Shown here in pieces: positions 1 to 16,611 of a stretch of DNA of 64,000 nt. How positions within the stretch are numbered: position 1 is the stretch's first letter; every line of letters begins with the position of its first letter. Source of the stretch: a virus (Duplodnaviria > Caudoviricetes); IMG/VR virus record IMGVR_UViG_3300047160_005605, positions 1 to 64,000 of that record, one strand, 5' to 3'. A program made the translations under genes and the position numbers. Under the pieces are notes generated by a model. That model ran no database searches and had not been told where the DNA came from. It was given only the letters and a program-made list of their open reading frames with translations.

Positions 1-576
1 GCGGCGCTCATTAAGATGCACAGTCGCAACTTCTTCAGCACTGTTGAAAAGAGACAGCGCTCAACTCTGACGCACACGATTACGTGTGCTGTGCTCGCAG
101 CGTAGCGAACGCAATTGACAAATCGACTCAAGACTCAACTTTGAGCGCCCAGACGCGCCACAAGCGATTTGTGAACGTCTAACAAGTGCTCAAAGCGAAT
201 AGCTCTAGACGTGCTTTCGTTGTGTCTGCTCTCTGCTCGACATGTAATCACTCGCACTGTGCTCTGTGTGCTGTGCGAACTATTCACAGTGCTCTTGTGA
301 GCGACAGCAAGCTTTCAATCACTGCGTTAATCTTTCGACTGAGAGAGCAACAGATAAAAGCGACAGCGCCTGAGAGCATATCTCTGTGAGTCAAGCGAGC
401 ACAGCAACAGCGCGGCGCTATCGAGCGCCAATTGCGCCAAGCGACTTACACAAGCTGAGCGTCACTCAAGAGCGAGTGACGTGCACTTGTCTAAGCTGTG
501 TTCGTCATGAGTGACACAAGCAAGTCACTTTTCAGTGACAGTCGCAAGCTTCAATTGACTTGAGACACAAGCGCTC

Positions 577-645
577 AGCGAGCACAGCATCAAGCTGTGC
601 TCGCTGTCGCTTAGACGCTTGCTCTGTGTGCGAGCGTCTAAGCGA
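577..645. repeat. Two adjacent perfect inverted repeats
   Basis: agcgagcacagc(577-588)/gctgtgctcgct(594-605) and tcgcttagacgct(607-619)/agcgtctaagcga(633-645). Confidence 0.85.
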
Positions 646-703
646 GCGCTGTCTTGTGACAGCGTATTGTCAACGTGTCTCAAATTGAAAGAGAGCTAGA
701 CAA

Positions 704-1291
704 ATGCAAGTTGTTTTCACTGAGCGACAGCGCCAGCTATTGGCGCTTGCTGAGCGCTGGCGCAAGAGTCAGCGCGAGCAGCGCAAGCAGAGCGAGCAAG
801 AGCAGCGCGAAGCGAAAGCGAGCGTCAGCAAACGCTTGACGCGAAGCGAGCAAGAGCAGCTAGCAAGCGCCCGCATTGCACAGCGCAAGCGAGCGCAAGA
901 GCAGCAAGAGCAAGAGCAGCGCGCCAAGCGCTCTGCTCTCTTGTGCGAACTAGCTGCGAAGCGCGTCAGCTTTCAAGCTGTGTGCAAAAAAGCTTATATA
1001 AGCAAGCTTGAATACGACAGCGCCAAGCAAAAGCACGTCAAGCGCACAATCGTCATTCGCTGTCGCACGTTGTACATAAGCGCTGACGCGCTCAACACTG
1101 TGCGAAAGCTGTTCTTGAGCACACGTAACAAAGAAGTCAGATATGTGCTGAGCGAAGCGAAAGCGCCCGATGATACAGACTATCGGCGCGTAGCGTCACT
1201 CACACACAATGAGGCGCTTGATTATCTGACGCGCTTGCTGACAAAAGATCGAGCATACACTGCAATGCATGAGCTACTGAATTGTAATTGA
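704..1291 (+). CDS. Hypothetical early protein with Q/E/R-rich coiled-coil N-terminus; contains no Gly
   Basis: 195-aa ORF preceded by the leader box GTGTCTCAA...AAAGAGAGCTA; followed by a terminator-like hairpin. Confidence 0.75.
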   Translation: MQVVFTERQRQLLALAERWRKSQREQRKQSEQEQREAKASVSKRLTRSEQEQLASARIAQRKRAQEQQEQEQRAKRSALLCELAAKRVSFQAVCKKAYISKLEYDSAKQKHVKRTIVIRCRTLYISADALNTVRKLFLSTRNKEVRYVLSEAKAPDDTDYRRVASLTHNEALDYLTRLLTKDRAYTAMHELLNCN

Positions 1292-1299
1292 GTCAAGCG

Positions 1300-1343
1300 A
1301 AGCTGAGTGAGTGACAAGCAATTGTCACTCACTCAGCTTTTGC
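1300..1343 (+). terminator. 18-bp perfect hairpin followed by a T-run, likely intrinsic terminator
   Basis: aagctgagtgagtgacaa-gcaa-ttgtcactcactcagctt then ttgc, just after the 704-1291 stop. Confidence 0.6.
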
Positions 1344-1348
1344 AGCTT

Positions 1349-1388
1349 TTGCGAAAGCATTGACAAGCGTATGTCAATGCTTTCGCAA
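1349..1388. repeat. 17-bp perfect inverted repeat containing TTGACA on both strands
   Basis: ttgcgaaagcattgaca-agcgta-tgtcaatgctttcgcaa. Confidence 0.8.
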
Positions 1389-1469
1389 GTGCTGTTAGCT
1401 GTGCACACACTTGAGCAGAGCGAGCACTTTGCTTGCTCTTGCTACTTCAGCACAGCGAGAGAGCTAGAC

Positions 1470-2021
1470 ATGTCACAAGTCAATTTTGCAGACGTTGTAA
1501 ACTGCGGCGCGCTGAGTGACAATGCTATGTCACAAGCGCTCAAGTCGCTCGCGATGCGAAGCGCTGCTCGCAGCACAGCGAGCAAGAGCGACAGCAAGAG
1601 CGACAAGCGCAAGCGCAAGAGCGCCAAGAGCGCGAAAGCGAGCGTCAGCGCCCAGACGTACGTGCAGACGAGAGCACAGCACAGAGAACAGTATTACAGC
1701 AAGCGCAAGATCGCTCATCATGCGAACACTGCTCAATTCAGTGTCAAGCGCCCCGGCGTAATCGCAACGATTATTGACGTGTTGCGAGCAGCGAGCGAGC
1801 AGCGCCCAGTGACGAAAGAGCAAGTGCTCGACAAGCTGTGCAAGCGCTTCACTGAGCGCCCGCGCGAGCACATGAAAGCGACTGTTAGTATGCAAGTCAA
1901 AAGCGGTTTGCGAATCGAAAAGCAGCTTGAGGTCAGCGAAAACGAAAAAGGTTTTTGGCTGACGCAAGAAGCTATCGACAAGAGCAAAGCGAGCGTCAGC
2001 ACAGCACCCAGCACGAACTAA
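1470..2021 (+). CDS. Basic protein with C-terminal winged-helix-like domain (paralog 1 of 3)
   Basis: ATG at 1470 after GAGAGAGCTAGAC; C-terminal GVIATIIDVL...PVTKEQVLDKL...GFWL aligns with 8550-9701 and 18364-18891. Confidence 0.8.
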   Translation: MSQVNFADVVNCGALSDNAMSQALKSLAMRSAARSTASKSDSKSDKRKRKSAKSAKASVSAQTYVQTRAQHREQYYSKRKIAHHANTAQFSVKRPGVIATIIDVLRAASEQRPVTKEQVLDKLCKRFTERPREHMKATVSMQVKSGLRIEKQLEVSENEKGFWLTQEAIDKSKASVSTAPSTN

Positions 2022-2028
2022 GTCGATT

Positions 2029-2100
2029 GAAGCGAGCACAGCACACATGCTGTGCTCGCTTCGCTTGCGCTGTCGCTCTGACAGCGCAAGCGAAGCGAGC
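2029..2100. repeat. Two overlapping, mutually exclusive perfect hairpins (15 bp and 21 bp)
   Basis: 2029-2043/2048-2062 and 2054-2074/2080-2100 share 2054-2062. Confidence 0.85.
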
Positions 2101-2169
2101 AAGCGCCTAGCTGCTCGCGCCCAGCGCCCCAAGCGCTGAGCGACGAGAGGAAAGGTTGCGCTCGCTGTA

Positions 2170-2229
2170 AAGGGTTACGCGCGTAAGGGTTACGCTGCGT
2201 AAGAGGTAAGGTGTCTCAAGCGTAAGAGG
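2170..2229. repeat. Short direct repeats and palindromes at the edge of the GG-free leader
   Basis: AAGGGTTACGC at 2170 and 2185; GCGTAAG(A)GG at 2181, 2197 and 2220; palindromes TTACGCGCGTAA and TTACGCTGCGTAA. Confidence 0.75.
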
Positions 2230-2260
2230 AGCTATCTGCGGAAGTTCCTGAACTCTGCTC

Positions 2261-2464
2261 TTGCAAGAGGCAGCGCAAGCTGCGAACGAAGAGGATCCGA
2301 AGTGCAAGGGAGTCTGCAATGAACGGAGCCCCGAGCGACGTTCCCCGCCGAAGAAGAGAAGAGAATGGGATTGTGAGAGGTGCGGTCGGGGTTGGATTGA
2401 AGTTCCTGCCTGGGTCCGAACCGTCAGCGAAGCGCACGCATCGGCGGAAGAGGACCTGAAGTGA
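2261..2464 (+). CDS. Small hypothetical protein with CxxC motifs
   Basis: CKGVC and CERC motifs; stop codon embedded in repeat element copy 1; TTG start uncertain. Confidence 0.5.
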   Translation: MQEAAQAANEEDPKCKGVCNERSPERRSPPKKRREWDCERCGRGWIEVPAWVRTVSEAHASAEEDLK

Positions 2465-2552
2465 CTCCCTCTACCATGCTCTCGCAAGAGAGCATGGACT
2501 AGGTAGCCATTTCGGTTATCTGTGTCTCAACTCAAGTCAAAGGAGCTAAGTT
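2462..2552 (+). promoter_or_regulatory. Intergenic structured repeat, copy 1 of 7, plus leader box and RBS
   Basis: TGACT-C-CCT-CTA-CC[atgctctc GCAA gagagcat]GG-ACT-AGG-T-AGCCA, then TGTGTCTCAACTCAAGTCAAAGGAGCTA. Confidence 0.8.
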
Positions 2553-2900
2553 ATGAAAGGTACGGTGTTATGCGCCGTCTTGGTTGGCTTGTGCATAGGC
2601 TGCGAACTACCTAAGAGCGAACCAAGCGCTCAAGAGGCTATCGCAGCGGCCAAACTCATGATTGGAAGGGAACTCGCTGCGCTCCACGTTGATTCCATTT
2701 ACTTCCCCGATGATTCCGGGGAATACTGGGTCACATGGCAGAGCGACGAAAAAGGGGTCATGCACGCTATCGTGCGCGGAGTTGCTAACCTGCGCACTTC
2801 GGAAGAGGACCTCAGACTGCAATCGTGGAAGCTGGACCTGACTTACGACAAGGAAAAGCAAGTCTGGCAATCGCACGGTATGAATTGGTCTCGACAATGA
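2553..2900 (+). CDS. Putative lipoprotein
   Basis: Hydrophobic N-terminus ending in lipobox-like LCIGC; AAAGGAG RBS. Confidence 0.7.
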   Translation: MKGTVLCAVLVGLCIGCELPKSEPSAQEAIAAAKLMIGRELAALHVDSIYFPDDSGEYWVTWQSDEKGVMHAIVRGVANLRTSEEDLRLQSWKLDLTYDKEKQVWQSHGMNWSRQ

Positions 2901-2981
2901 CGGTCCCCATTACCGCGCTTGCGAGAGCGAGCGCGGACCTGGTGATCGTTTGGTGTCTCAATTCAAGTCAAAGGAGCTAAC
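2898..2981 (+). promoter_or_regulatory. Intergenic structured repeat, copy 2 of 7
   Basis: ACGGTC-C-CCA-TTA-CC[gcgcttgc GAGA gcgagcgc]GG-ACC-TGG-T-GATCGT, then GTGTCTCAATTCAAGTCAAAGGAGCTA. Confidence 0.85.
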
Positions 2982-3497
2982 ATGGGTAAGAAGATCGTCA
3001 AGAGCATTGCGGAATTGTGTGAGGATAAGGATGCCTACTGCCAAAGCGGTTACATCCGAATGAAGGACCTCATGAACCGATCAGGTCCCATGACCGATGA
3101 GACGTTCATGGATACGCAAGAAGGCGAGAAAGGGTGGCTGGAAAAACTCGGCATCAAAGAGGATGACGTGGTCTTCGTTTCCTTCTACAACGTCGCCGCT
3201 GATGATTACTGTCTCAAGCTGGAAGGGTACGAACTCTTCGCGGAAATGGACGATTATACCGTAATCGTCTATAAGGACGGGAAGCTGATCGGCGGGTACT
3301 ACTGCTCGACAAGAGGTTGCGCCTATCATGCGAATTGCTGGATCGGCAATACTGACCCCGAGCAATTCCTCGGTGCGGTCAGTTGGGATGACGAGAAGGA
3401 AGGAGTCAAAGCGCATACCTGGTTCAAGACCACCAGCGATATCGCAAAGGACCTTGCAATCGACCATCAGAACCGCGTCGTCAACCCCCTGCGATGA
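2982..3497 (+). CDS. Hypothetical early protein
   Basis: 171-aa ORF flanked by repeat elements, strong RBS. Confidence 0.8.
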   Translation: MGKKIVKSIAELCEDKDAYCQSGYIRMKDLMNRSGPMTDETFMDTQEGEKGWLEKLGIKEDDVVFVSFYNVAADDYCLKLEGYELFAEMDDYTVIVYKDGKLIGGYYCSTRGCAYHANCWIGNTDPEQFLGAVSWDDEKEGVKAHTWFKTTSDIAKDLAIDHQNRVVNPLR

Positions 3498-3567
3498 CTC
3501 CCATTACCGCGCTCGTCAGAGCGCGGACCTGGTAGCCATTCCAAACTCAAGTCAAAAAGGAGCTAAG
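3494..3567 (+). promoter_or_regulatory. Intergenic structured repeat, copy 3 of 7
   Basis: ATGACT-C-CCA-TTA-CC[gcgctc gtca gagcgc]GG-ACC-TGG-T-AGCCAT, then CTCAAGTCAAAAAGGAGCTA. Confidence 0.85.
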
Positions 3568-4329
3568 ATGGGAAAGAAGCGCAAGCGTGTTTCCGCTGAA
3601 AGGCGGCTCCGCGAGCGCGATGAGCAGGAATCCAAACCAACTCTGTGTTGGCACGGACCTGATGAGCGTGAGGATGACTTGACTTCGGATCACATTTGGG
3701 AAACTGAGTGTGGATCTTACCGAATCATACGTTCGGTGAGCAAGTTGGGTCAAACGAACCGCTTCATCGCGCTCGTGAAGGAGCAGTATCACAATGGTCC
3801 TAGCTGGGACTTCGTTGACCGCCGCCCCGAAGGGAACTATCCGAGAGAGCATCGCACTTTACCGGATGCTTTTCAGGCAGTGAATATGCACTGTCTGGAA
3901 CGGCGAAAAGTTGTCCCCACTAGCAATGAGGAAGAGGTGTTGGTTAGCGCTGAAAAGCAGAAACTAACACTTCTCCCCTATGCTGTCCCCGCAAGTCGCC
4001 TAATAGCCAGCAATGCATTGCCTTCGCCCTCTCCGCGAGCACCTAGCAAAGCTAGCTCTCCAAAAGCTAGCTCAAGCTCAACGGTGAGGAGAAACGGCGT
4101 GCTGGTATTCGGGCGCTATCCGTTGTCGAGAGTAGGCAACTGGATGGGACTGAAAGGTGGATGGGACCTTGCTCGCGCCAAGCGAGCGCTTGAGAAGGTC
4201 GGTGTAGACCTTGCGAGCGTGAAGGATTCGACGCTCAAGACCGCCTTGACAGACGGAAGGAACCCCAAGTATTCTAAACCGGCTGACTTGATGGATTCGG
4301 AAATCAAGCAGCTGGAAGGAGTGAAGTAA
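3568..4329 (+). CDS. Hypothetical early protein with N-terminal VSAERRL motif
   Basis: ATG 3568 follows AAGGAGCTAAG; the longer ORF in the track runs through the repeat element. Confidence 0.8.
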   Translation: MGKKRKRVSAERRLRERDEQESKPTLCWHGPDEREDDLTSDHIWETECGSYRIIRSVSKLGQTNRFIALVKEQYHNGPSWDFVDRRPEGNYPREHRTLPDAFQAVNMHCLERRKVVPTSNEEEVLVSAEKQKLTLLPYAVPASRLIASNALPSPSPRAPSKASSPKASSSSTVRRNGVLVFGRYPLSRVGNWMGLKGGWDLARAKRALEKVGVDLASVKDSTLKTALTDGRNPKYSKPADLMDSEIKQLEGVK

Positions 4330-4355
4330 GGTGAAACTGTCGAAGAAACACGCGA

Positions 4356-4733
4356 TTGGACCAGATCCTCAAGAACAGCACGTACCTTCCCGAAGCGGGT
4401 TTGGTAGTGCAGCTTCGCAAGGCGCTGGAAAAGCTGGGCGAGGTAGCGCTCGGTCAGCTAAACGTCATCATCATGTGCAAGGAATCGGATGCACGGATGA
4501 CGTTTGTGATGGAAATTGCCAATCGGGAAGTCCCGGAAAGGAAACCGCCCTGGGTGGTGCACTTCCGTCGTAATGATGGAACGGATGAGATTTTTGGTTC
4601 ATTCGAGGACGAAAAGGCAGCCGACGAGTGGACCGAGATGTTTATCGCTCAGTGCGAGAAGGAGGACGGAAAGTTCGATGGCGTCTGCGCTCCTCAAGAG
4701 CTGTCCGACCCGAAGTTTTCCGATCCCGCGTAA
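4356..4733 (+). CDS. Hypothetical early protein
   Basis: 125-aa ORF whose TAA forms the start of repeat copy 4. Confidence 0.7.
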   Translation: MDQILKNSTYLPEAGLVVQLRKALEKLGEVALGQLNVIIMCKESDARMTFVMEIANREVPERKPPWVVHFRRNDGTDEIFGSFEDEKAADEWTEMFIAQCEKEDGKFDGVCAPQELSDPKFSDPA

Positions 4734-4811
4734 CGATCCCCATTACCACCCTCTCGCGTGAGAGGGTGGACCTGGTGACCGTTCTGTGTCTCAAGTGAAA
4801 GGAGCTAGGTT
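4731..4811 (+). promoter_or_regulatory. Intergenic structured repeat, copy 4 of 7
   Basis: AACGATC-C-CCA-TTA-CC[accctctc gcgt gagagggt]GG-ACC-TGG-T-GACCGTT, then TGTGTCTCAAGTGAAAGGAGCTA. Confidence 0.85.
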
Positions 4812-5432
4812 ATGCTGTGGAAAGCCAGCAGTGTGTACGATGCAGGAACCATTTCCTTCGACATGGCCGACACTTTCCAGGCCGCTTGGGAGTATCTTTG
4901 GGATAAAAACCAAAAGCTCCTCAAGAAATGGGACCGCTCGTACTACCACTACGTCTCGGCGACGGATCTGGTGCGGCGCTTCCGCGCTTCGCTGGTCGAG
5001 CGCATTGACAAGCGACCGTATGGGTCGCTCGATTGCGACGGCTACGGTGTGCGCGTGCATCTCAACGGCAAGGGCATGACCCTGCTTGGATGGGCACGCG
5101 ACTGGTTGTATTGTCAGGTCCGAGCAGGGAAGCTCGAGGCGTACAACCCGAAAGGTTCGACCTGCAGCGGTTTGCGCTTCCGACCTGTAGGGGCTTCCTA
5201 CTCGGCAGCGGAGATCGAGCTGCGCAGCCTCAGCAAGGAGGAGAGGTCGCGCCGCTATCGCATTTACCACGCAAAGGACGTGGAAGGCGGTGCTCTGTGT
5301 GGTGTCAAGAACCGAAGCATGGGCGGTCGGCATCCGTTCCGAAAGCGCATCGCTATCGTCGGTGAGGATGGCAAGGTGACGTGCAAGCGCTGTCTCCGCG
5401 CGATGGAGATGCGGAAGTTCCTAAACTCCTGA
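4812..5432 (+). CDS. Hypothetical early protein with C-terminal Cys/His motif (YH...LCG...VTCKRC)
   Basis: 206-aa ORF, strong RBS. Confidence 0.8.
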   Translation: MLWKASSVYDAGTISFDMADTFQAAWEYLWDKNQKLLKKWDRSYYHYVSATDLVRRFRASLVERIDKRPYGSLDCDGYGVRVHLNGKGMTLLGWARDWLYCQVRAGKLEAYNPKGSTCSGLRFRPVGASYSAAEIELRSLSKEERSRRYRIYHAKDVEGGALCGVKNRSMGGRHPFRKRIAIVGEDGKVTCKRCLRAMEMRKFLNS

Positions 5433-5437
5433 GGAAT

Positions 5438-5530
5438 TGACGATCCCCATTACCACCCTCCTGTGAGGAAGGAGGGTGGACCTGGTGACCGTTATGTGTT
5501 TCAAGTTCAAGTCGAAAGGAGCTAGGTACT
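5438..5530 (+). promoter_or_regulatory. Intergenic structured repeat, copy 5 of 7
   Basis: GACGATCCCCATTACC[accctcct gtgagga aggagggt]GGACCTGGTGACCGTT, then TGTGTTTCAAGTTCAAGTCGAAAGGAGCTA. Confidence 0.85.
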
Positions 5531-5845
5531 ATGTACAACATGCGGAAAGCTGTGGATGCAGGGTTGCGCCAGCAGGACCATTTGGATCCGAACTGGTTCA
5601 ACAAGATTTACCGCACCAAGCTGCACATGGGAAGCTGCAAGGACTGTATGCTCGGTCAGCAGTACGGCGACTTTGAGGAAGGAGTCAAAGCGCTCGGACT
5701 GGATGACGAATCGGCGGTGAACTTGGGGTATTCGATTCCGCGCTTCATGATCTACGATGGGTGCGATTTGGTTGACCGGTTCTGGAAAGCGCTGAATCGC
5801 ATGTGGAAGGAAGCGATCATGGATCGGGAATGCTGGACCAGCTGA
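5531..5845 (+). CDS. Hypothetical early protein
   Basis: 104-aa ORF between repeat copies 5 and 6; CxxC (CKDC). Confidence 0.8.
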   Translation: MYNMRKAVDAGLRQQDHLDPNWFNKIYRTKLHMGSCKDCMLGQQYGDFEEGVKALGLDDESAVNLGYSIPRFMIYDGCDLVDRFWKALNRMWKEAIMDRECWTS

Positions 5846-5927
5846 CGATCCCCATTACCGCCCTGGCAACAGGGCGGACCTGGTGACCGTTGGTTACCAT
5901 TCAAGTCAATTGGAAAGGAGCTATGCT
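5843..5927 (+). promoter_or_regulatory. Intergenic structured repeat, copy 6 of 7
   Basis: GACGATCCCCATTACC[gccctg GCAA cagggc]GGACCTGGTGACCGTT, then TCAAGTCAATTGGAAAGGAGCTA. Confidence 0.85.
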
Positions 5928-7052
5928 ATGGTTAAGACAGCAGAAAGGCGATTGTCCAGGGTGGATGTTATCCGGAGCAAGTTCGGACAACTCCGAAAAG
6001 ACCTGAACTACTTCCTGATCGAGAGGCAAATCGAGATTGACTTGGTCCTTGCTGCTATGGTCTGTGCAGAGCATTGCCTGCTAGTAGGCGAGCCGGGAAC
6101 GGCGAAAAGCTTGCTGGTTAGCAATGTGCGCAAGGCTATAGAAGGAGCCAAGAAACCCTTCACCGTGCACTGCTGCAAAGACACTACAAGAGGGGCGGTT
6201 TTCGGACCGACCAAGCTGAGTGCTTTGAAGGATGATCGCACGGATCGGGCACTGGCCGGTGGCGCTGCCGATACGCACTTCCTCATCCTAGAGGAAGTGT
6301 TCAAAGCAGGTCCCGCCGTTCTCGATATGTTCCTCATGCTGATTAACGAGAGGGTGTATGAGGAGGGCTTGGTTTCTGCCGAGGCTCCTCTGCGCTTCTG
6401 TCTCGCGGTCAGCAATGAGTGGAAGCCTGAAGGTTGCGAGGCAGCGCTCGCAGCTTTCTTCGATCGGTTCTTGTTCAGGAAGGAGGTCAAGCGCGTCAGC
6501 ATGAGGTCCTTGGATCGGTTGCTGTTCAGTGATATCCGCTTCGATCCGAAGGACAAGATCACGCTCGAGGAGCTTGATACGGCCACGAAGGTCGTGGAAG
6601 GGTACGAGATGACGAAGGAGGCAAGGGAAAGCTTCCGAACGATCATCGAGAACTTGCACGCGGAAGGTATCTTCCCTGGTGATCGCCGAATGCGCAAGGC
6701 GGTGAAGGCCGCTAAGGCATACGCTTTCATCTGTCAGGACGTGGAAGTGGAGACCAAGCATCTGGATATCCTAGCCCATGTGCTTTGGAATGACCCAGAG
6801 GAGCAACCGAAAAAGGCTGCTCGCATCATCGGAGTCATTGCCAATCCGACGGGGACGAAGATTACCCAGTTGCAGGAGGAGATGGAGGATGTGGTGGCCA
6901 AGAACACTCCTCAGGAGGCCGTTCCGAAGCTGAAGCACATCCAAGCTCAACTCGCCGACCTTCCAATGAATCCCCGCAAGGCGGACGCATTGGAGTATGT
7001 CGCGGACATGATTAAGGACCGCTATGACGCCGTGATAGGAAGGAGGTCGTGA
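5928..7052 (+). CDS. MoxR/RavA-family AAA+ ATPase
   Basis: Walker A GEPGTAKS, Walker B LILEE, SNE sensor, FFDRF arginine finger, DRR lid motif. Confidence 0.9.
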   Translation: MVKTAERRLSRVDVIRSKFGQLRKDLNYFLIERQIEIDLVLAAMVCAEHCLLVGEPGTAKSLLVSNVRKAIEGAKKPFTVHCCKDTTRGAVFGPTKLSALKDDRTDRALAGGAADTHFLILEEVFKAGPAVLDMFLMLINERVYEEGLVSAEAPLRFCLAVSNEWKPEGCEAALAAFFDRFLFRKEVKRVSMRSLDRLLFSDIRFDPKDKITLEELDTATKVVEGYEMTKEARESFRTIIENLHAEGIFPGDRRMRKAVKAAKAYAFICQDVEVETKHLDILAHVLWNDPEEQPKKAARIIGVIANPTGTKITQLQEEMEDVVAKNTPQEAVPKLKHIQAQLADLPMNPRKADALEYVADMIKDRYDAVIGRRS

Positions 7053-8452
7053 TGCCTAGCAAAGAGGAATTGCTGAAAATGTTCAACCTTGACAAGGGGT
7101 TGAGCAAGTCAGCGCCTGCACCGTCAAAGCCTGTCGTGCGCAAGGAAGCGCCGCAGGTCGTCAGGGATAGGGATAACTGCCTTATCCTTGACGAATGGGA
7201 TCAGGATCGCGGGATGGTGATGGCTCGCAAATTGGGCAATCCAGAGAGCGACCATCTATCCCAGTCAGCGCTCGCTGACTTGCATGGAGTGTGCTTCAAA
7301 CCTGATCCACAATTCGCTGAGGGCTGCAAGGACGAGAATCGAGAAAGGTTCATCAAGACCCTTCTTGAGTCCTCGGAATTTGCAGGTCTCAAGGCGAGCA
7401 CCACGCTAGTCGTTACCGCCAGTGAGCGTGCTGCCTACAATCTCGCCGAAGAGCTGGGCAAGGTGTGCGAAGCTGAAAAGCATCGCAAACCGAAACCTGA
7501 CTCCGCAAAGGAGGAGAGAGCGAAGGCAGGAGCGTTCATCCGAGCGGTAGCGAAGGGTGTGGACAAGACCGAAAAGGAGGTCGAAGAGATGGATGGCATC
7601 TGCCATGCGATGGGCATGGGTGAAGGCATGAGAGGTCACAATCTTGCTCCGGAACAACTCGCTGAGTTGTTCAACAAGGTTAGAAATAACCCTGTCGTGA
7701 GAAGGATCTGTGAGCTAGCGGGTCGTTACCGTCTCAGCGCTCAGAGCAAGCAGAGGAACAAGGTCGTTCACGGTTACGATGATATGGTGGGTCTGTGTCT
7801 GGACGATACGCTCGGTCTCCTGCTCCCAGAAGAGTTAATGCTTTTGGGAGAGGATGACGAGCTAGGTCTGGACGCGGCGCGCCGTCTCATGGAACGGGAA
7901 ACACTCGCCTTCGACTATCGCAGCATCGAGAAGGTAGCGAAAGGTTCCATTCTCATCACAACCGATGAGAGTGGTTCGATGCACGGCGAGCCTAATGCCA
8001 ACGCAAAAGCCTTCGCATTGGCGATGGCATGGATCGCACGCAAGCAGAATCGCTGGTGTGGTTTAGTTGGCTACAGTGGAGGCGATCCCGGTTTGCTGCT
8101 GACGCTACCTCCCCACAAGTGGGATGAGCTAGCCGTTCTTGAATGGATGGCTCACTTCTACGGTCGGGGGAGCGATCGTGACGTTCCGGTAGTCGAATTG
8201 CCAGACTTCTACCGGCAGATGAAAGCGCCGAAAGGCAAGACGGATCTGGTGATGATTACCGACGCGATCTGTCATCTGGATGCTGGCGAGATTGCAAGGT
8301 TCAACGATTGGAGAAAGGAGGAGAAGGTTCACTCAATCGCTCTTATCATCGGCAGGGAAGCGGGTGATCTGAAGCAGGTATGTGATGAGGTCTACTACCA
8401 AGCGCAGCTTGGAGTAGAGAACGAAGGTGTGGAAAAGTGTCTCTCTATTTGA
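7049..8452 (+). CDS. von Willebrand factor A domain protein (ViaA-like partner of MoxR)
   Basis: MIDAS DESGSM, distal ITDA; directly follows the MoxR ATPase. Confidence 0.85.
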   Translation: MMPSKEELLKMFNLDKGLSKSAPAPSKPVVRKEAPQVVRDRDNCLILDEWDQDRGMVMARKLGNPESDHLSQSALADLHGVCFKPDPQFAEGCKDENRERFIKTLLESSEFAGLKASTTLVVTASERAAYNLAEELGKVCEAEKHRKPKPDSAKEERAKAGAFIRAVAKGVDKTEKEVEEMDGICHAMGMGEGMRGHNLAPEQLAELFNKVRNNPVVRRICELAGRYRLSAQSKQRNKVVHGYDDMVGLCLDDTLGLLLPEELMLLGEDDELGLDAARRLMERETLAFDYRSIEKVAKGSILITTDESGSMHGEPNANAKAFALAMAWIARKQNRWCGLVGYSGGDPGLLLTLPPHKWDELAVLEWMAHFYGRGSDRDVPVVELPDFYRQMKAPKGKTDLVMITDAICHLDAGEIARFNDWRKEEKVHSIALIIGREAGDLKQVCDEVYYQAQLGVENEGVEKCLSI

Positions 8453-8461
8453 AAGGGAGGC

Positions 8462-8549
8462 TGACGATCCCCATTACCGGGCCTGTCGTGCCGCAGGCCC
8501 GGACCTGGTGACCGTTTGTCTATTGTGTCTCAACGAAAGGAGCTATGTT
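8462..8549 (+). promoter_or_regulatory. Intergenic structured repeat, copy 7 of 7
   Basis: GACGATCCCCATTACC[gggcctg tcgtgccg caggccc]GGACCTGGTGACCGTT, then TGTGTCTCAACGAAAGGAGCTA. Confidence 0.85.
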
Positions 8550-9701
8550 ATGACCGCCTCTATTCAGACCAACGAGAAGGGCTCGAGGAAAGGTCGGCGA
8601 GCCGCCGCCATCAAGGAGTTGTCGGAAGGCAAGTCGCGCTTCCTCGGAGAGTTAGTCATACTCTCCACGGGGACGGGTAAAAAGCACAAGCTGAAGGAGA
8701 TTATCTCCGCGCTTGAGTCCTGCGACCTCAACAAAGAGGTTGCCAAGGAGCTTTCCCCGCGGGCTGCCTTCACCCGTGCCGCACGCGAACTGGCAGACGA
8801 GAGGGTTATCGACATCCTTCGGGATGAAACGGACCACATCACCTTCCAGTTCACGGCGAAGGCGATGAAGGACTCCGAGTGGAAGTATTCCAAAGAGACC
8901 AACGTCGTTCTGGACAAGATCAGCGGCAAGGTGCGCTGCCCCTCTTCAAATATCGAAGAATTGGCGCAGAAGGCACTGGACCGCGCTCTTGAGGAGCGGG
9001 GCACGTCGGATATCACCGAGATGGTGAAGCGTTTGTTCAGCGAGAACGGTGATATCATCTCGGCTCGGGATGAGGGTGGAGTGTACTTTGTGCCGGAGCC
9101 CTATCGGGCATTCTCCGACAAGGTGCAGGACTTCCTCAAGCTGCTCGGACGGCGTATCAATCGCTGGCCAATCCCGGCTGGTGAGGATCGCGCGGACGAG
9201 TCCGTGCAGGACGTGTGCACTTCCTACATCCAGAGGCTGTGCGAGCAGCTGGACGTTGCCATCAGCGGGTTCGGTACGAGCACCCGGGCGACGACCATCG
9301 AAGCGACTGCCGCTCATATCAATGAGTTGATGGTAAAGGTTGAGGCCTTTGCCAGCTACTTCGGCGATATGAAGGAGAGCAGTCTGGCGTTGGTCGCTTC
9401 CAAGCAGAGGATGCTGGCAGAGCAGGTCGATAAGATCGCCGACCTGAAAGCGTCAGCACCTCCGGGCACGAACGGGAGCGGCAAGAAGGTGGGTATCATC
9501 GCCGCAATCATCGAGGTACTGGAAAGCGCCAGTGCCAAGAAGCCGGTGACGCGCGATGAGATCCATGCCAAGTTGGTCGAGAAGTTCCCCGAGCGCGACC
9601 CGAAGGGTATGCGCAATACCGTCATGTCTCAGGTTCCCGGTTGCCTTCTCAAGGAGAAGGGCATCACCGTGAACCGCAATGATCGTGGTTACTGGCTGTA
9701 A
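8550..9701 (+). CDS. DUF6744-like protein fused to C-terminal winged-helix-like domain (paralog 2 of 3)
   Basis: N-terminal LGELV...SPRAAFTRA resembles DUF6744 from memory; C-terminal GIIAAIIEVL...PVTRDEI...GYWL. Confidence 0.65.
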   Translation: MTASIQTNEKGSRKGRRAAAIKELSEGKSRFLGELVILSTGTGKKHKLKEIISALESCDLNKEVAKELSPRAAFTRAARELADERVIDILRDETDHITFQFTAKAMKDSEWKYSKETNVVLDKISGKVRCPSSNIEELAQKALDRALEERGTSDITEMVKRLFSENGDIISARDEGGVYFVPEPYRAFSDKVQDFLKLLGRRINRWPIPAGEDRADESVQDVCTSYIQRLCEQLDVAISGFGTSTRATTIEATAAHINELMVKVEAFASYFGDMKESSLALVASKQRMLAEQVDKIADLKASAPPGTNGSGKKVGIIAAIIEVLESASAKKPVTRDEIHAKLVEKFPERDPKGMRNTVMSQVPGCLLKEKGITVNRNDRGYWL

Positions 9702-9759
9702 AAGGATTGCACTCCGGCCAAGGAAGGCCTTCTCTTGTCTCAAGTGAAAGGAGCTAACT

Positions 9760-9867
9760 GTGGCTGAACCATTGCGGACTCCGAGGGAACGGCGGGAATA
9801 TAACTCCAAGCTGACGGTTACCCTCAACGGCACTAGGGAAAATCCGTACCACAAGTGGGGATTCTAA
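9760..9867 (+). CDS. Small hypothetical protein (35 aa)
   Basis: GTG after the leader box TGTCTCAAGTGAAAGGAGCTA; translated manually. Confidence 0.5.
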   Translation: MAEPLRTPRERREYNSKLTVTLNGTRENPYHKWGF

Positions 9868-9868
9868 C

Positions 9869-10036
9869 ATGAAACTCAACCTGTTAGCAGCAGATCCCAT
9901 CCCCGATACGGATTACATTCGTAAGACCCTTGCCGGTCTCTTCTCGGAGGAGTTCATCGACCTCTGCTGCAAGAAGTTCGTGCCCGGAAGGGTTATCAAG
10001 TTCGACGTTTACTTCAACGATGAAGGAAAGGAGTAA
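9869..10036 (+). CDS. Small hypothetical protein (55 aa)
   Basis: MKLNLLAADP...DEGKE; TAATG coupling to the next ORF. Confidence 0.55.
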   Translation: MKLNLLAADPIPDTDYIRKTLAGLFSEEFIDLCCKKFVPGRVIKFDVYFNDEGKE

Positions 10037-10281
10037 TGGACAAGTTCATGCTTCGCTTCACCTATAAGGTTCACGGTGAGGACTGCACCGGCGGACCTTA
10101 TAGGGTCTCTGCAACATCATTGCAAGATGCCGTAGCGAAACTCCATACCGCGCTGCTTATGGTAGCGCGATGGAGCGACAACTATTGGCACGGCTGTTAT
10201 GCCTTTGCCAACTACCAAGTCTCAAAGGCACTGGATGACAGCGAGTACACGGAAGATGAGTTGGACAAGTATCTCAAGTAA
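10036..10281 (+). CDS. Hypothetical protein
   Basis: AAGGAG RBS, 81 aa. Confidence 0.7.
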   Translation: MDKFMLRFTYKVHGEDCTGGPYRVSATSLQDAVAKLHTALLMVARWSDNYWHGCYAFANYQVSKALDDSEYTEDELDKYLK

Positions 10282-10435
10282 AGGAAAGGAACCTGGAGCT
10301 ACGTGGAACAACTTCCTACCACCGTTATGGCTAGAGAGCCTGAAGATCGCCGCCTTAGTGATGGTGGGTTTTGAATTGTTGGTCATGGTGGGGACGACGG
10401 TCTGGATCTATCTGTCCCCAGTGTAAGCCGTTCGG

Positions 10436-10469
10436 GCAATAGGGGGAGGATTCTCGCTTCCCCTATTGC
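10436..10469 (+). terminator. Probable intrinsic terminator at the end of the early region
   Basis: gcaatagggggag / cttcccctattgc hairpin followed by attggtttcgtt. Confidence 0.55.
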
Positions 10470-10510
10470 ATTGGTTTCGTTAGCTTGCTAAGCTATGTTA
10501 GAAAGGAGCT

Positions 10511-11452
10511 TTGCCGATGCGAATCAATGACGTGGCACCGAAGTTCTTTACGGATGAACTTTTACGGTGCGCCAAACTTGACCGCAACTGGATAGAGGTC
10601 ATCTCGGGTTTCCCGATGACTCTCCATGCAAATTACCAGGCGCGAGTCAAGCCGGGTATCAAGACATGGGTAGAGAAGGCGTGGGAGCAAGGATCTGACG
10701 CGCTGTCTATGAAGGCGTTGTCTTGGTGGCTGCTAGATGGCCCAAAGGTCTTTGTACCGACCAAGATACAATGCCAGGCGATGGAGCACATAGAGATTAA
10801 CCTGCCCGTCGCGGATTACAGCCAGCCCTATCCCGCCATCATGATTGACCTGCGGAGCATGGGCTATTGTCCATTCGAGAGCGTCCTAGCGTGCCATGAC
10901 TTCTCCGGAGCGCATTGTGTCATCACCTGTTGCATCAATTCGCATGACCACCTCAATGATATTGCCACTACGGTTGGCAGGACCGACTGCATGATTGAGG
11001 AATCCGTGCGGAAGTTCGACGCTAACATAACAGAGGACGAGAGCAGCTTGGCATGCAAAGTGCTGCGGATAGCGCTCAATAGCTGTCTGGCACTGAGCCA
11101 CTATGGCAATCACATCGAGTACCTCTACCCCAAGGAAGTGGACAGCGACCGCAGACTTGCCAGAGAGTACAGCGAGCGTGGCAAGAAGGCACGCCAGCGC
11201 CTGTCCCTTGCCGTGCAAAAGATCAGCTTCGATCAGGAGGTTAGGCTGCACCGTGTAGTCCACAAGCGAGTGGAGCCCGGCGAGCCGACGGGCCGCGAGA
11301 TGCCCCCGCACTGGCGGTCTGGGCATTGGGCGATGCAACCCTATGGGCCTACACAGTCGCTCCGCAAGCGAATCCTACGTCCGGGAGTAATGGTTCGCCG
11401 GGATCTGTTTCTCGGTGACGATTCTGATAGTTCAGCAACCTACCGAGGGTAG
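10511..11452 (+). CDS. Conserved-type phage hypothetical protein with C-terminal PHWRSGHW motif
   Basis: 313-aa ORF; PHWRxGHW...YGP tail recognised as recurrent in phage proteins of unknown function. Confidence 0.75.
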   Translation: MPMRINDVAPKFFTDELLRCAKLDRNWIEVISGFPMTLHANYQARVKPGIKTWVEKAWEQGSDALSMKALSWWLLDGPKVFVPTKIQCQAMEHIEINLPVADYSQPYPAIMIDLRSMGYCPFESVLACHDFSGAHCVITCCINSHDHLNDIATTVGRTDCMIEESVRKFDANITEDESSLACKVLRIALNSCLALSHYGNHIEYLYPKEVDSDRRLAREYSERGKKARQRLSLAVQKISFDQEVRLHRVVHKRVEPGEPTGREMPPHWRSGHWAMQPYGPTQSLRKRILRPGVMVRRDLFLGDDSDSSATYRG

Positions 11453-11530
11453 GGAAAGGAGTTAGTGTGAGACCGACGAATGACGTGGCGTTACCCAGTG
11501 TCCTTGTCGATGATGTAAGGAGGACTGCTC

Positions 11531-11695
11531 ATGACCCCGCGTGAATGGGAGACTTTCTTCGCACTGCTGGAGAAGATCGTCAACGCTCCCGAAGGCACCT
11601 ATAAAGAGAAGGCTGCTTCCGTGATGCTTCAAGCCAAGAATCAAGGCTCGGAAACGGAACTCAATGAGTTCGCTTCTTGGTTCCAGGAGGGCTAA
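11531..11695 (+). CDS. Small hypothetical protein (54 aa)
   Basis: AAGGAGG RBS; TAATG coupling. Confidence 0.6.
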   Translation: MTPREWETFFALLEKIVNAPEGTYKEKAASVMLQAKNQGSETELNEFASWFQEG

Positions 11696-11889
11696 TGGAC
11701 GAACTACTCAAGCAAGTGGAGCGAGTCTGGAAAGCCCTCCTCGAGTATGGGCCGCTTGACGATGGCACTCCTCAAGGAAAGGAGCTAGAAGATGCCATCA
11801 TCGATCTGAGGAAGGCTTCTATCCCTTTCAAATTGCGAAGGAGTAAGCGTGTTAAGAAACGCCATAACCGAAACCTACGGAGAGGTTGA
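11695..11889 (+). CDS. Small hypothetical protein
   Basis: AGGAGG RBS; basic C-terminal tail. Confidence 0.55.
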   Translation: MDELLKQVERVWKALLEYGPLDDGTPQGKELEDAIIDLRKASIPFKLRRSKRVKKRHNRNLRRG

Positions 11890-12343
11890 TAAGCTCTTGC
11901 ACTTCACGGTGCACAAGTTTATCCGTAAGTATGGCGGGGATTATGATACGCTGAGAGCCGATGCCAACTGGCATTTTCTCTCAGCGTATCTATCCTTCAA
12001 GCCATCGAAGTCAAAGTTTTCCACTTGGGTGAGCTATAGAGTCCACATGGGACTGTTGGCGAGCAAGCGCGACGATAAGAAGCGCGCCCACTATCTCAAG
12101 CCGCTACCAACTAAGCTGTACGCTCGCACGGAGAGCACTGCAAGGCAGCTTGCGCGGGACTTGTCAGATGATGCCGGCGCGATCATACGCTTGGTGTTGA
12201 ATATTATCCCTGCCAGCTTCTTTCGACGGCGGCATAACAAGCGCCAAGCGCTAGTTGAATACCTAACTGGCTTGGGTTGGTCTGAGGCTAAGATCGAGCG
12301 TAGCTTCGCCGAGCTAAGAGAGGAGCTATGTACTCAAACCTAA
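11849..12343 (+). CDS. Sigma-70 region 2-like (ECF-type) phage sigma factor
   Basis: LLHFTVHKF...DYDTLRADA...FKPSKSKFSTWV resembles region 2; helical HTH-like C-terminus. Confidence 0.6.
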   Translation: MLRNAITETYGEVDKLLHFTVHKFIRKYGGDYDTLRADANWHFLSAYLSFKPSKSKFSTWVSYRVHMGLLASKRDDKKRAHYLKPLPTKLYARTESTARQLARDLSDDAGAIIRLVLNIIPASFFRRRHNKRQALVEYLTGLGWSEAKIERSFAELREELCTQT

Positions 12344-13767
12344 TGCGCAGAGCGAGAGGTCTTGGCAATGGTGTCATGCAGTTGGTGAGGTGGACCGATC
12401 CTATCACCAACAAGACTATTACCAAGCCGCATGAGTTTCAAGCATGGGCAGTCCGCAAGCTGCACAGGTGGGGCGGGCGGGGATTGCTTGCCGATGACAT
12501 GGGTTTGGGCAAGACGGTCGAAGCGCTTATCTATGCCCATGAGGTTCCAAAAGCAAGACCCGCTCTAGTTATTTGCCCTGCCTTTCTCAAGTTCAATTGG
12601 GAGCGCGAAGCAGCACGCCATGTAGGTATGCGAGCGGAGATACTCGACGGGACGAGAGTGCCGAGGAGAGGGATACTCCCCCCAGCACCTTTGTCTATTA
12701 TCAACTACGAAATACTAGGACCATGGATGGAATGGCTGATGGCGATGAAATTCAAGCTTATCATCCTAGACGAGTGCCAGTACGTCAAGAGCCGCAAAGC
12801 TAAGAGGACTAGGTATTGCCGACAGCTTTGCTGGAATGCGCCAAGGGTAATCGCTCTGAGTGGTACGCCGCTCACCAACCGACCCGAAGAGTTGTGGTCG
12901 ATCCTGAATATGATACGGCCAGACCTCTACTCAGAGTTTATGCCGTTCGCGTTCAAATACTGCAAGCCGCAGCATTCGCCGCATGGATGGTTGTTTCCGG
13001 GCGCTGACAACCTTGACCACTTGCATCACAAGCTGAAAAAGCAGCTTATGATACGCCGGAAGAAAAGCGCCGTCATGCCTTTCTTGCCGAAGAAAGTGCA
13101 CTCGGTCATACCTGTCAAGATCACCAACCTCAAAGAGTATGTCCATGCCAAAGAGGACTTCTTGGGTTGGCTGTACTCTGTGAGTCCCGAGCGTGCACGT
13201 ACGGCAGCTAGAGCCGAAGGGCTAGCGCGCTTGGGATACTTGCTCAGGCTCATTGGAGAAGGCAAGCGTCAAGCTGTCTCCAAGTGGATTGAGGACTTCT
13301 TAGGCGCAACCGACGATAAGCTCTTAGTCTTTGGTCGGCATGTTAGCGTAGTCACTGGCCTCCACAATGATTTTCCCAAAGAATCTGTGGTCATCTATGG
13401 CGCTGTCTCTAAGAGTGAGCGTAACAAGCGCGAGCATGAGTTCCAGAACAACCCCAAGATAAGAGTCCTCATAGGCAACATACAAGCTGCTGGCGTAGGT
13501 CTAAACCTCACAGCCGCAAGCTATGTAGGCTTCGCTGAGTATCCCTGGACTCCGGCCGAGCTTAACCAAGCGATAGACAGAACGCACCGAATAGGCCAGA
13601 CCAAGCAAGTTAGCGTTTACTATCTTACTGCCATCAACACCATAGAAGAAAGGATGGTGAAGCTGCTACAAAAGAAGCAAGGGATCTTGAGTTCCATTCT
13701 CGACGGGAGAAGGGATCGTTCCGATGTTAGTGTGTATGACCAACTCATAAAGGAGATGCGAAAGTGA
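12328..13767 (+). CDS. SNF2/SWI2-family helicase (HARP-like)
   Basis: LADDMGLGKT, ILDECQ, LSGTP, AAGVGLNLT, QAIDRTHRIGQ. Confidence 0.95.
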   Translation: MYSNLMRRARGLGNGVMQLVRWTDPITNKTITKPHEFQAWAVRKLHRWGGRGLLADDMGLGKTVEALIYAHEVPKARPALVICPAFLKFNWEREAARHVGMRAEILDGTRVPRRGILPPAPLSIINYEILGPWMEWLMAMKFKLIILDECQYVKSRKAKRTRYCRQLCWNAPRVIALSGTPLTNRPEELWSILNMIRPDLYSEFMPFAFKYCKPQHSPHGWLFPGADNLDHLHHKLKKQLMIRRKKSAVMPFLPKKVHSVIPVKITNLKEYVHAKEDFLGWLYSVSPERARTAARAEGLARLGYLLRLIGEGKRQAVSKWIEDFLGATDDKLLVFGRHVSVVTGLHNDFPKESVVIYGAVSKSERNKREHEFQNNPKIRVLIGNIQAAGVGLNLTAASYVGFAEYPWTPAELNQAIDRTHRIGQTKQVSVYYLTAINTIEERMVKLLQKKQGILSSILDGRRDRSDVSVYDQLIKEMRK

Positions 13768-13985
13768 TTAACCACAAGAAGTCTTTCCCAGTGAAAGGCA
13801 AGAAGAAAGGAGAAGGCATCCTGTTCATCAGGAACCTCCCAGAAGAGGACCACCGCCTGTTCAAGGCGTGGTGTGTGCGACGCGGCTGGACGATGACGGC
13901 AGCGATCCGTCACTTCATCCGCGAGTGTGTTCGTGGTTCCGAGCAAACCCACAACCCAGGAAAGGGAAAGCGAAATGACGTGTAA
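13764..13985 (+). CDS. Ribbon-helix-helix (Arc-like) DNA-binding protein
   Basis: LFIRNLPEEDHRLFKAWCVRRGWTMTAAIRHFI. Confidence 0.7.
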   Translation: MINHKKSFPVKGKKKGEGILFIRNLPEEDHRLFKAWCVRRGWTMTAAIRHFIRECVRGSEQTHNPGKGKRNDV

Positions 13986-14226
13986 GGAATTCCGGAAGGT
14001 AGTCGATGGCAGCTTCCTCGAGACCACAAGAGCCGAGCGCTGCGCCATCGTCGAGCACCGAAAGGTGTGCAGGACTTGCGATGAATATCTCACTAATATT
14101 AGTCTGGAAAGCATCAAGGGATTGAAGGAGAGGCTTCCTTCGCCCCTCTATGAGTTGGCGGTGCTAGCCCTATGGGGCGCTGCCAGTACGATCCGCAAGC
14201 AAGACGTGGAGGACCCCGAGACATGA
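13975..14226 (+). CDS. zf-HC2/ZAS anti-sigma-like zinc-finger protein
   Basis: MTCKEF...VEHRKVCRTC (C-x(n)-HxxxCxxC). Confidence 0.6.
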   Translation: MTCKEFRKVVDGSFLETTRAERCAIVEHRKVCRTCDEYLTNISLESIKGLKERLPSPLYELAVLALWGAASTIRKQDVEDPET

Positions 14227-15098
14227 CCTTTGCAGAGATTCTCGACCATTATGGTGTGCACTACGAAACCGAGGGCAAGCACACCCGGCGAGGCTGGGTA
14301 CAACTCGATTGCCCTTGGTGCAGCGGCGAGCTTTACTTGGGTTACAACATCGCCGGCAATTATTGCAATTGCTGGCGCTGTGGTAGCCACAGCACGCTGG
14401 ACGTGCTAGTATCAGTGACCCGAGCGAACTACCCCGCAGTGATCGGGCTTTACAAGCAATTAGACAGAGCAGACTATGAGAAGCCTCACACCGTAGTCTG
14501 CGGCAAGCTGCTAGTGCCTCAAGCTTCATTCCTGGAGAAAGCGCATGTCAAGTATCTCCATGAAGTGCGCGGCTTTCGGCATAGCGAGATTAACGAATTG
14601 GTTAAGTTATGGAAGATCAGAGGCATTGGTCCCTTCGCTCCGAAGCTGACTTGGCGCATTTTAATCCCCATAGAGTATAGGAGCGAAGTGGTCAGCTGGA
14701 CCACGCGCAGCATCGGCGAGTTTACGAGCGTGCGCTATGTGTCGGCGTCTCCTTCCGAAGAGAGGATGCACCACAAGCACTTGCTCTATGGTGAGGACTA
14801 TGCCAGAGCGTCTATCATCGTCTGCGAAGGCCCTATAGACGTGTGGAAGATCGGGCCCGGCGCTGTTGCTACGCTTGGCGTAGGCTATACGGGGGAGCAG
14901 CTTTTGCGCATGAGCCGCTACCCTCACCGTGCGATCTGGTTCGACAATGAGCCTGACGCTCGCCAGCGCGCTCGACGGCTTAGAGATGATTTAACTGCAT
15001 TCCCTGGGACAACCTATGTCATCATGAGCGATGCGAAGGATGCGGGATCCGCCAAACGCTCAGAGATAGCAGAGGTCAGAAGGAGATTCTTGTTATGA
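14223..15098 (+). CDS. DNA primase (zinc finger plus TOPRIM)
   Basis: CPWC...CWRC zinc finger; VCEGPID, ATLG, FDNE TOPRIM motifs. Confidence 0.9.
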   Translation: MTFAEILDHYGVHYETEGKHTRRGWVQLDCPWCSGELYLGYNIAGNYCNCWRCGSHSTLDVLVSVTRANYPAVIGLYKQLDRADYEKPHTVVCGKLLVPQASFLEKAHVKYLHEVRGFRHSEINELVKLWKIRGIGPFAPKLTWRILIPIEYRSEVVSWTTRSIGEFTSVRYVSASPSEERMHHKHLLYGEDYARASIIVCEGPIDVWKIGPGAVATLGVGYTGEQLLRMSRYPHRAIWFDNEPDARQRARRLRDDLTAFPGTTYVIMSDAKDAGSAKRSEIAEVRRRFLL

Positions 15099-16603: not shown

Positions 16604-16611
16604 GAGGGGCT

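Follow-up and report, generated by a model that had tools for sequence, protein, structure and literature searches.

A 3-kb island of a Caudoviricetes phage genome nearly devoid of GG and CC dinucleotides outside GCGCC

We analysed a 64,000-nucleotide stretch of viral DNA (hereafter the window), positions 1-64,000 of the IMG/VR record IMGVR_UViG_3300047160_005605, which belongs to an uncultured soil phage of the Caudoviricetes, and found that the dinucleotides GG and CC are nearly erased from a single island of 3,001 bp in this genome, except where they lie within the five-letter context GCGCC or its complement GGCGC. The island consists of positions 71,460-72,228 of the record, an 84-bp junction and positions 1-2,148, the last of which make up its right-hand two thirds. 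Both strands are affected, in coding and non-coding DNA alike, indicating that selection acts on the DNA itself, and we tentatively propose that the island is an immediate-early control unit that has been recoded to hide from a host factor reading GG:CC steps on duplex DNA.

Results

GG and CC are depleted on both strands of the island

An initial annotation of the window, made from its letters, had described a leader purged of GG and CC at positions 1-2,148 on the basis of a manual estimate, and a formal count confirmed the purge. The whole island holds 58 GG/CC dinucleotides, whereas the 66,311 other windows of 3,001 bp hold 319-544 (median 378) and mononucleotide shuffles hold 399 ± 16; the GG/CC odds ratio over the 3-kb island is 0.13. 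In windows of 1 kb, the odds ratios at 1-1000 and 1001-2000 were 0.06 and 0.11 for GG and 0.14 and 0.20 for CC, and both stood at about 0.7-1.2 in the later windows, in agreement with the earlier remark that GG is used freely in the rest of the window. The longest gaps without any GG or CC measure 295, 292 and 210 bp in the island, compared with a maximum of 62 bp elsewhere in the genome. When trinucleotides of the island were counted on both strands and set against the numbers expected from the rest of the genome, GGA/TCC was found once against 100 expected, GGT/ACC twice against 81, AGG/CCT four times against 93 and GGC/GCC 32 times against 93.

The depletion is equal on the two strands. It is present in non-coding DNA and, in the genes, both inside codons and where one codon meets the next. 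Because all of these, and the Shine-Dalgarno boxes described below, are hit, we conclude that selection acts on the DNA itself. The other purine-purine steps are normal (AA, 1.01; GA, 1.02; AG, 1.35) and the GC content is unchanged at ~51%, indicating neither a general shift in composition nor mutational decay. Since this GC content has been kept and the GC step has doubled to 1.98, the cause is selection rather than deamination decay, and deamination-type hypermutation was ruled out. Z-DNA and a general ban on purine-purine steps were ruled out by the normal AA, AG and GA steps, and RNA readers of the Rho or CsrA type by the normal TC step and the symmetry of the depletion.

The GG and CC that do remain follow a context rule. 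Thirty of the 44 GG/CC runs in the island lie in GCGCC/GGCGC and 2 more in GGCG, compared with 1.9% of the runs in that context in the rest of the genome; the initial annotation had put the runs between 1 and 1,750 at about 19, all in GGCGC/GCGCC, and there are exactly 19, every one in that context. GCGC is followed by C in 23% of its occurrences in the island and in 16% in the rest of the genome, whereas within the island C never follows AGC (0/298) or TC (0/383) and follows TGC in 2% of cases. Of the island's GGC trinucleotides, 86% have G as the next base, and no exemption holds for GGC ahead of A, T or C. The GCGCC context is fully exempt from the ban, and the island proteins exploit this exemption, with every proline in them coming after a CGC or GCG codon.

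The island is internal to the genome and lies between the late and early arms

The IMG/VR record is 72,228 bp long, and the genome assembles as a circle of 72,312 bp. The 84-bp junction, which is free of GG and CC save for one GCGCC, is absent from the record, and the same 84 bp are present in six independent Joint Genome Institute (JGI) soil-metagenome contigs (L007-L012) that connect the record end to the record start, so that position 1 is internal in 6/6 contigs. Because these contigs bridge the record ends, the start of the record at position 1 is arbitrary and is no genome end; in addition, the gene tables of several ENA contigs give an identical gene order across the record ends. Of the extent first assigned to the feature, 1-2,148, the right end therefore stood and the start did not, as the island runs on through the junction to 71,460, and the same six contigs gave no support to a leader at the genome terminus. 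An assembly artefact was ruled out (the initial annotation had named a chimera as evidence against its reading), the same island sequence recurring in more than 10 assemblies; assemblies of this phage diverge by only 0.1-0.2%.

The island sits between the late arm (- strand), whose first gene starts at 71,208 and which carries the terminase gene further along, and the early arm (+ strand); its left edge comes after the start region of the late operon. Both edges are sharp and match unit boundaries, the right edge lying ~50 bp past a 22-bp hairpin, and normal GG/CC usage resumes abruptly at 2,149. Within the island, the ban is looser in the leftmost 650 bp and again beyond ~1,900. Directly to the left of the island, at 71,353-71,440 (7353-7440 of contig L001), three tandem copies of the 26-bp unit TTTCTAGGAGGTTTAACCGGAAAAAA lie upstream of the first late gene, and several assemblies break there.

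The island contains paired hairpins, repeated palindromes and two small genes

Some 1.5 kb of the island is without convincing ORFs (open reading frames). The dinucleotide scan assigned 1-2148 of the window to the island, and the run listing found GG/CC only as GCGCC/GGCGC in the non-coding segment 1-575, in which no convincing ORF was seen; the left part of the island has an AT-richer stretch with CAATTG-containing repeats at 71,515-71,690. The operator-like palindrome TGACA-N6-TGTCA has 6 of its 7 genome copies in the island (at 71,598, 71,960, 657, 1312, 1361 and 1517), and the genome's five longest perfect hairpins, with stems of 13-22 bp, are all located there. The hairpins are arranged as pairs that lie ahead of gene 1, between the two genes and behind gene 2. 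The first pair (576-645) is formed by a 13-bp perfect stem at 576-606 and a 16-bp stem at 607-645, and beyond it lies one of the six palindromes, TGACAGCGTATTGTCA (657-672). The second pair (1300-1394) has perfect stems of 18 and 17 bp with a palindrome at each tip (1312 and 1361), and the copy at 1517-1532 falls inside gene 2. At the right edge of the island (2029-2101), a 15-bp stem (2029-2062) and a 22-bp stem (2053-2101), the latter the longest perfect hairpin of the genome, overlap by 10 nt and are mutually exclusive, and by analogy this pair at the island exit looks like a terminator/antiterminator pair. The hairpin arm GCGAGCACAGC is found at both 576 and 2029, flanking the two-gene unit. 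Predicted sigma-70 promoters and terminators were no more frequent in the island than in shuffles, and no Rfam families or tRNAs were found. To the right of the island, a non-coding stretch with GCGTAAGGGTTACGC repeats and normal GG/CC usage (2149-2552) separates it from the first ordinary early gene (2553).

Gene 1 (704-1291, + strand), an ORF with a leader box, would encode 195 aa with no glycine, one proline and one tryptophan, exactly as first reported. The leader GTGTCTCAA at gene 1 (675-698, + strand, together with the GG-free ribosome-binding box AAAGAGAGCTA that follows it) is also present at the next early genes, and a box ending in GAGCTA is common to gene 1, gene 2 and the neighbouring early genes; the shared leader indicates that the island is native early DNA. 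Gene 2 has the GG-free ribosome-binding box GAGAGAGCTA (1457-1466, + strand). The loss of GG from the Shine-Dalgarno sequence, another of the initial claims, was borne out by the distribution of the two box types, AGAGAGCTA occurring only at 690 and 1458 and the normal AAGGAGCTA 10 times elsewhere. The structure model of the gene 1 product is confident only for a long N-terminal helix, its C-terminal part being uncertain.

Gene 2 (1470-2021, + strand) would encode a protein of 183 aa whose N-terminal part is basic and of low complexity and which ends in a winged-helix domain. A homolog search with this protein matched only itself; within the genome, its C-terminal 70 aa share 52% identity with the ORF end at 18682-18888 and 43% with that at 9477-9698. 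Compared with these paralogs, FP(D/E)R is replaced by FTER and QVP by QVK, so that the recoding of a winged-helix paralog inferred initially was found again, and four GGT/GGC codons, from ~1,900 on, lie in the conserved part of the gene. The predicted model of the domain (mean predicted local distance difference test, pLDDT, 78.6; order H-H-H-E-E) comprises three helices and a beta-hairpin wing, consistent with a winged-helix fold, and the top Foldseek matches were all winged-helix proteins, with weak scores (E 0.06-0.3). The domain had no Pfam match even at E<=10. HARE-HTH (PF05066) was considered for it and rejected, the profile giving no match and a score of 0.80 from a language model being the sole lead.

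The rest of the genome follows a different rule

Outside the island, 6-bp palindromes are strongly avoided (497 observed and 1,090 expected), and 15 of them are absent entirely, including GGCGCC, GAGCTC, GTCGAC, TGATCA and AGATCT (2200-64000 and on to 71,400); AGCGCT, TGCGCA, TTGCAA and GATATC are over-represented there. The avoidance does not depend on GG, being 0.44 for GG-containing and 0.46 for GG-free palindromes. The island, for its part, keeps AGCGCT, CAATTG and AAGCTT and holds five copies of GG-free palindromes that are seen only 7 times in the other 69 kb (AACGTT, ACATGT twice, TCGCGA and TATATA), whereas ~0.3 copies would be expected if they were as frequent as outside the island. 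Among 5-mers outside the island, CCTCG/CGAGG is the most under-represented (0.33) and GCGCC the second most (observed/expected 0.63), a deficit due in part to GGCGCC being missing altogether. Different, partly mirror-image rules thus apply inside and outside the island.

A separate polarity was seen for the hexamer AGCGAG, which occurs 79 times on the + strand and 19 times on the - strand genome-wide, with the same sign in both arms (34:9 in the arm of + genes, 23:7 in the arm of - genes) and in the island (22:2). No other hexamer ranks above it in same-sign bias, which was not seen in the relatives. It may mark a one-way process along the genome, as a Chi-like or translocation-polar signal would.

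The phage carries a 7-deazaguanine module and probably infects planctomycetes

The initial annotation had placed a DpdA in this phage, and a homolog was indeed found at 22298-23341 (+ strand), at the end of a 7-deazaguanine module assigned by homology (19495-23341, + strand) that also comprises QueE (19495-20217), QueC (20221-20904), FolE (20958-21560) and a QueF-like protein (21440-22264), all on the + strand. The DpdA assignment is based on tblastn matches with 27-34% identity to annotated phage DpdAs; the PF01702 profile gave no match. Judging from this gene content, the phage DNA very probably carries a 7-deazaguanine of the preQ1 type. DNA methyltransferases able to mask GCGC were not detected in the phage with PF00145, PF01555 and PF02086, and searches of the genome for an integrase, ParA and sigma-70 region 2 found none.

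The early arm includes a conserved trio at 5883-9701, in which the MoxR-like ATPase bpMoxR is joined by a VWA-like protein and by a DUF6744 protein that ends in a winged helix, and hundreds of homologs of the ATPase occur in phage-like contigs of 50-110 kb. Among genome contigs, the best relatives of the ATPase belong nearly all to metagenome-assembled genomes of Gemmataceae or other Planctomycetota, which suggests that a planctomycete is the likely host. The segment 19,061-19,245, probably the queD of the deazaguanine module, has 69-81% DNA identity to many genomes of the Gemmataceae family, in support of a planctomycete host.

The island is absent from relatives

We scanned 47 related loci (826 kb) and 80 genome-contig loci (1.3 Mb) for GG/CC, and in these 127 loci (~2.1 Mb) no comparable island was found, the lowest odds ratio of any 500-bp window being not below 0.27. 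No GG/CC-poor window was present in the contigs at 51-55% ATPase identity that span the region of early/late divergence, and no GG/CC-poor island in 44 IMG/VR loci. The phage collection had no DNA match to the island or to 20 kb of the genome, and pattern scans of IMG/VR with single proteins likewise found nothing. A DpdA homolog is present in only 3 of 42 related IMG/VR records; in the other 39, neither a DpdA nor an island was found near the ATPase, and the same leader in dpdA-lacking relatives, which the initial annotation had named as evidence against its reading, was thus not encountered. The whole records of the three DpdA-carrying relatives and one complete DpdA-less relative contain no island poor in any dinucleotide, and phage CAjan has no GA- or GG-poor island. 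No strong island was seen in SSU5 either. The island is therefore lineage-specific, and is neither a family trait nor a general trait of DpdA phages.

Discussion

Known motif avoidance in phages concerns restriction sites of 4-8 bp and a weak, genome-wide depletion of protospacer adjacent motifs (PAMs). Here, one functional unit of 3 kb has lost a dinucleotide almost completely, with a clean five-letter exemption, and has paid for it in Gly, Pro, Trp and Shine-Dalgarno sequences. The symmetry of the depletion, its indifference to coding, its sharp edges and the sacrificed Shine-Dalgarno sequences and residues argue that the GG:CC step has been strongly selected against in duplex DNA, and selection of this kind across one unit is the signature of a reader with 2-bp specificity, such as is known from PAM recognition by CRISPR systems and from DpdA. 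Starting from what was observed, namely the ban, its strand symmetry, the context rule, the sharp edges, the anatomy and the absence from relatives, we infer that a reader is the cause, that it would be the host's and that the unit would act first. The reader might be an undescribed one of duplex DNA with a two-letter GG:CC specificity and blind to GCGCC, representing either part of the immunity of the planctomycete host or a DpdA with a new specificity; we advance this as a possibility that falls short of an even chance.

Our preferred explanation, put forward with equal caution, is that an immediate-early control unit has been recoded to hide from a host reader of GG:CC on duplex DNA. The island would be the first unit of the early (+ strand) arm and a self-contained control module, with ~1.5 kb of non-coding DNA, six operator-like palindromes, four pairs of long hairpins and two small genes for proteins of a DNA-binding type. 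Purifying selection would have recoded the whole unit, leaving no GG:CC step in the duplex except inside GCGCC, and this recoding would have reached the proteins and the hairpins as well as the promoter-leader boxes and Shine-Dalgarno sequences. Most likely, the unit would thereby be hidden from a factor that searches double-stranded DNA for the 2-bp signature GG/CC and does not see GCGCC; candidates would be a PAM-type reader of a CRISPR interference or adaptation machine, a short-motif nuclease or a base-modifying enzyme. Such concealment would matter on entry, when the unit would have to work before other phage functions. First entry of the island would also explain why the recoding is local, and is plausible only by analogy, from the island's place beside the terminase-side late operon.

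We favour a host reader for three reasons: the island is lineage-specific, which fits a changeable, host-specific pressure better than a conserved function; recoding of a whole unit is the expected result of a penalty for a hit anywhere; and the alternative based on the phage's own DpdA offers no reason to recode genes and fits known DpdA motifs poorly. The anatomy, with 6 of 7 operator palindromes and the five longest hairpins in the island, fits a control unit. Avoidance of a host defence directed at GG/CC had also been suggested initially; it may apply, but not in the form of ordinary restriction sites, nor of a plain CC or NGG PAM, which would not spare GCGCC. Ordinary restriction-site avoidance cannot be the explanation, since palindromes that the genome bans elsewhere are tolerated in the island.

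Several observations weigh against this explanation. The exemption is complete, and we know of no CC or NGG PAM reader that would spare GCGCC. The rest of the genome is full of GG/CC, so that an argument for locality is needed, and with its five copies of palindromes that are rare elsewhere the island is not stealthier overall. No spacer-like match to 1-20000 of the window was found in 201 genomes of the Gemmataceae family, which belongs to the likely host phylum. Nor is the ban absolute at sites 934 and 72,124, where alleles in the population give rise to a GG that the exemption does not cover, as TCGGCT in one contig and as GCGGCT in three of the six. Finally, gene 1 is an ORFan that matched only itself among 1.84 billion representatives, and, given the island's TA-poor composition, 4% of its dinucleotide shuffles contain ORFs of at least 195 codons; because long ORFs arise by shuffling, the reality of gene 1 rests on its leader box and a strong excess of A over T, not on its length.

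Avoidance of the phage's own DpdA, the interpretation first offered, is the strongest competitor, although we judge it distinctly less probable than a host reader. According to this explanation, the enzyme would put dPreQ1 at GG in most contexts but not in GGCGC, and the operators, hairpins and early genes would be kept unmodified. The phage has a DpdA and the full preQ1 pathway, DpdAs read motifs of 2-3 bp (PMC7544227, PMC10484667), and no other such reader is known in this system; moreover, this explanation alone predicts the weak mirror pattern, in which GCGCC is allowed in the island and reduced to 0.63 elsewhere, and it agrees with the joint lack of DpdA and island near the ATPase in 39 of 42 related records. 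However, the mapped DpdA motifs are GA and GGC, whereas GA is undepleted in the island (1.02) and the retained GGCGC contains GGC, and neither CAjan nor the three DpdA-carrying relatives have a corresponding island. A general block of transcription by the modification is unlikely, as GG-rich replication genes would also be transcribed from modified parental DNA; protection of operators would not require the recoding of whole genes; and the equal avoidance of GG-containing and GG-free palindromes elsewhere indicates that GG is not generally shielded. The view that the segment lacks the target of its own DpdA thus gained no positive support, and the initial interpretation is supported in part: DNA-level selection and a DpdA in the phage hold, whereas a terminal leader and a DpdA target found no support.

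It is improbable, in our estimate, that the island is simply a module with a history of its own, either a cassette from another phage or a segment physically shielded, for example by a bound protein, and subject to another regime, which would account for its departing from the rest of the genome in two respects. The five palindromes banned elsewhere, the lack of outside homologs of genes 1 and 2, the absence of the island from relatives and the GCGAGCACAGC arms bracketing the two-gene unit would all suit such a history. Against it, the GTGTCTCAA leader and the GAGCTA box are common to the neighbouring early genes and gene 2 is a paralog of two resident genes; foreign origin alone would give no reason for the ban, and no known genome is so composed.

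We regard as still less probable that the depletion is a by-product of dense, oriented words of the AGCG type (AGCGAG and others) and palindromes, which would have crowded out GG/CC. The vocabulary of the island is small, AGCGAG is present at ~20 times the expectation from composition, and its polarity extends over the genome with the same sign in both gene arms. Nevertheless, crowding cannot yield an AGC that is never followed by C while GCGC is followed by C in 23% of cases, it leaves the rewritten Shine-Dalgarno boxes and the Pro and Gly codons unexplained, and the 22 copies of AGCGAG are close to the 20.3 expected from the island's 5-mer content. A reader of RNA, with both strands transcribed and an RNA-binding or RNA-cleaving factor that needs GG or CC being avoided (for example a GGA-binding regulator or a dinucleotide-reading, RNA-modifying toxin), would suit the mutually exclusive hairpins at 2029-2101, which are of the kind found in RNA switches, and the altered Shine-Dalgarno sequences, but is highly unlikely, since GG and CC are equally depleted on the message strand, the depletion runs through 1.5 kb without genes, and antisense transcription, for which there is no evidence, would be required.

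If an undescribed reader is indeed responsible, its pressure would be strong enough to make a phage rewrite a whole control unit, including proteins and ribosome-binding sites. The pattern would be a precise fingerprint of that reader, one that binds or acts at GG:CC and not at GCGCC, and could be used in a search for defence systems or in an assay of this phage's DpdA.

Comparison with known systems

The segment of phage T5 that is transferred in the first step is not known to contain EcoRI sites. The island resembles this segment and the leading end of T7-like phages in being small, with small genes of its own and repeats or inverted repeats at its bounds, and in having a sequence that would be adapted to survive before other phage functions, if it does act first. 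T5 DNA is transferred in two steps (bioRxiv 10.64898/2026.04.02.716235), and a statement in PMC6546361, citing its ref. 53, gives the first-injected DNA ends as the preferred source of spacers. Unlike in the T5 segment, what is banned here is a dinucleotide and not a 6-bp site, and palindromic sites are less thoroughly purged from the island than from the remainder of its genome; the assemblies are circular across the region.

CRISPR systems offer the second comparison. The PAM of type I-F systems is CC (PMC12174588) and those of type II systems include NGG and GGNG (PMC4246573), and depletion of such PAMs, like the pattern in the island, reflects selection against a 2-bp GG/CC motif on both phage strands. 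The published depletion of the CC PAM in phages is, however, small and genome-wide (8.27% versus 8.74% CC; PMC12174588), whereas the drop in the island is ~7-fold and confined to 3 kb, proteins have been rewritten, and the GCGCC exemption is not predicted by known PAM rules.

With the DpdA systems of CAjan (motifs GA and GGC; PMC7544227) and iggy (GA only; PMC10484667), this phage shares a DpdA with a preQ pathway, from an enzyme family that reads contexts of G of 2-3 bp; unlike this phage with its GG/CC-poor island, neither CAjan nor the DpdA-carrying relatives have an island free of a motif. Avoidance of restriction sites, finally, is strong in the rest of the genome in the form of palindrome avoidance, and the island follows another rule, indicating that a single phage genome can be subject to two distinct sequence regimes at once.

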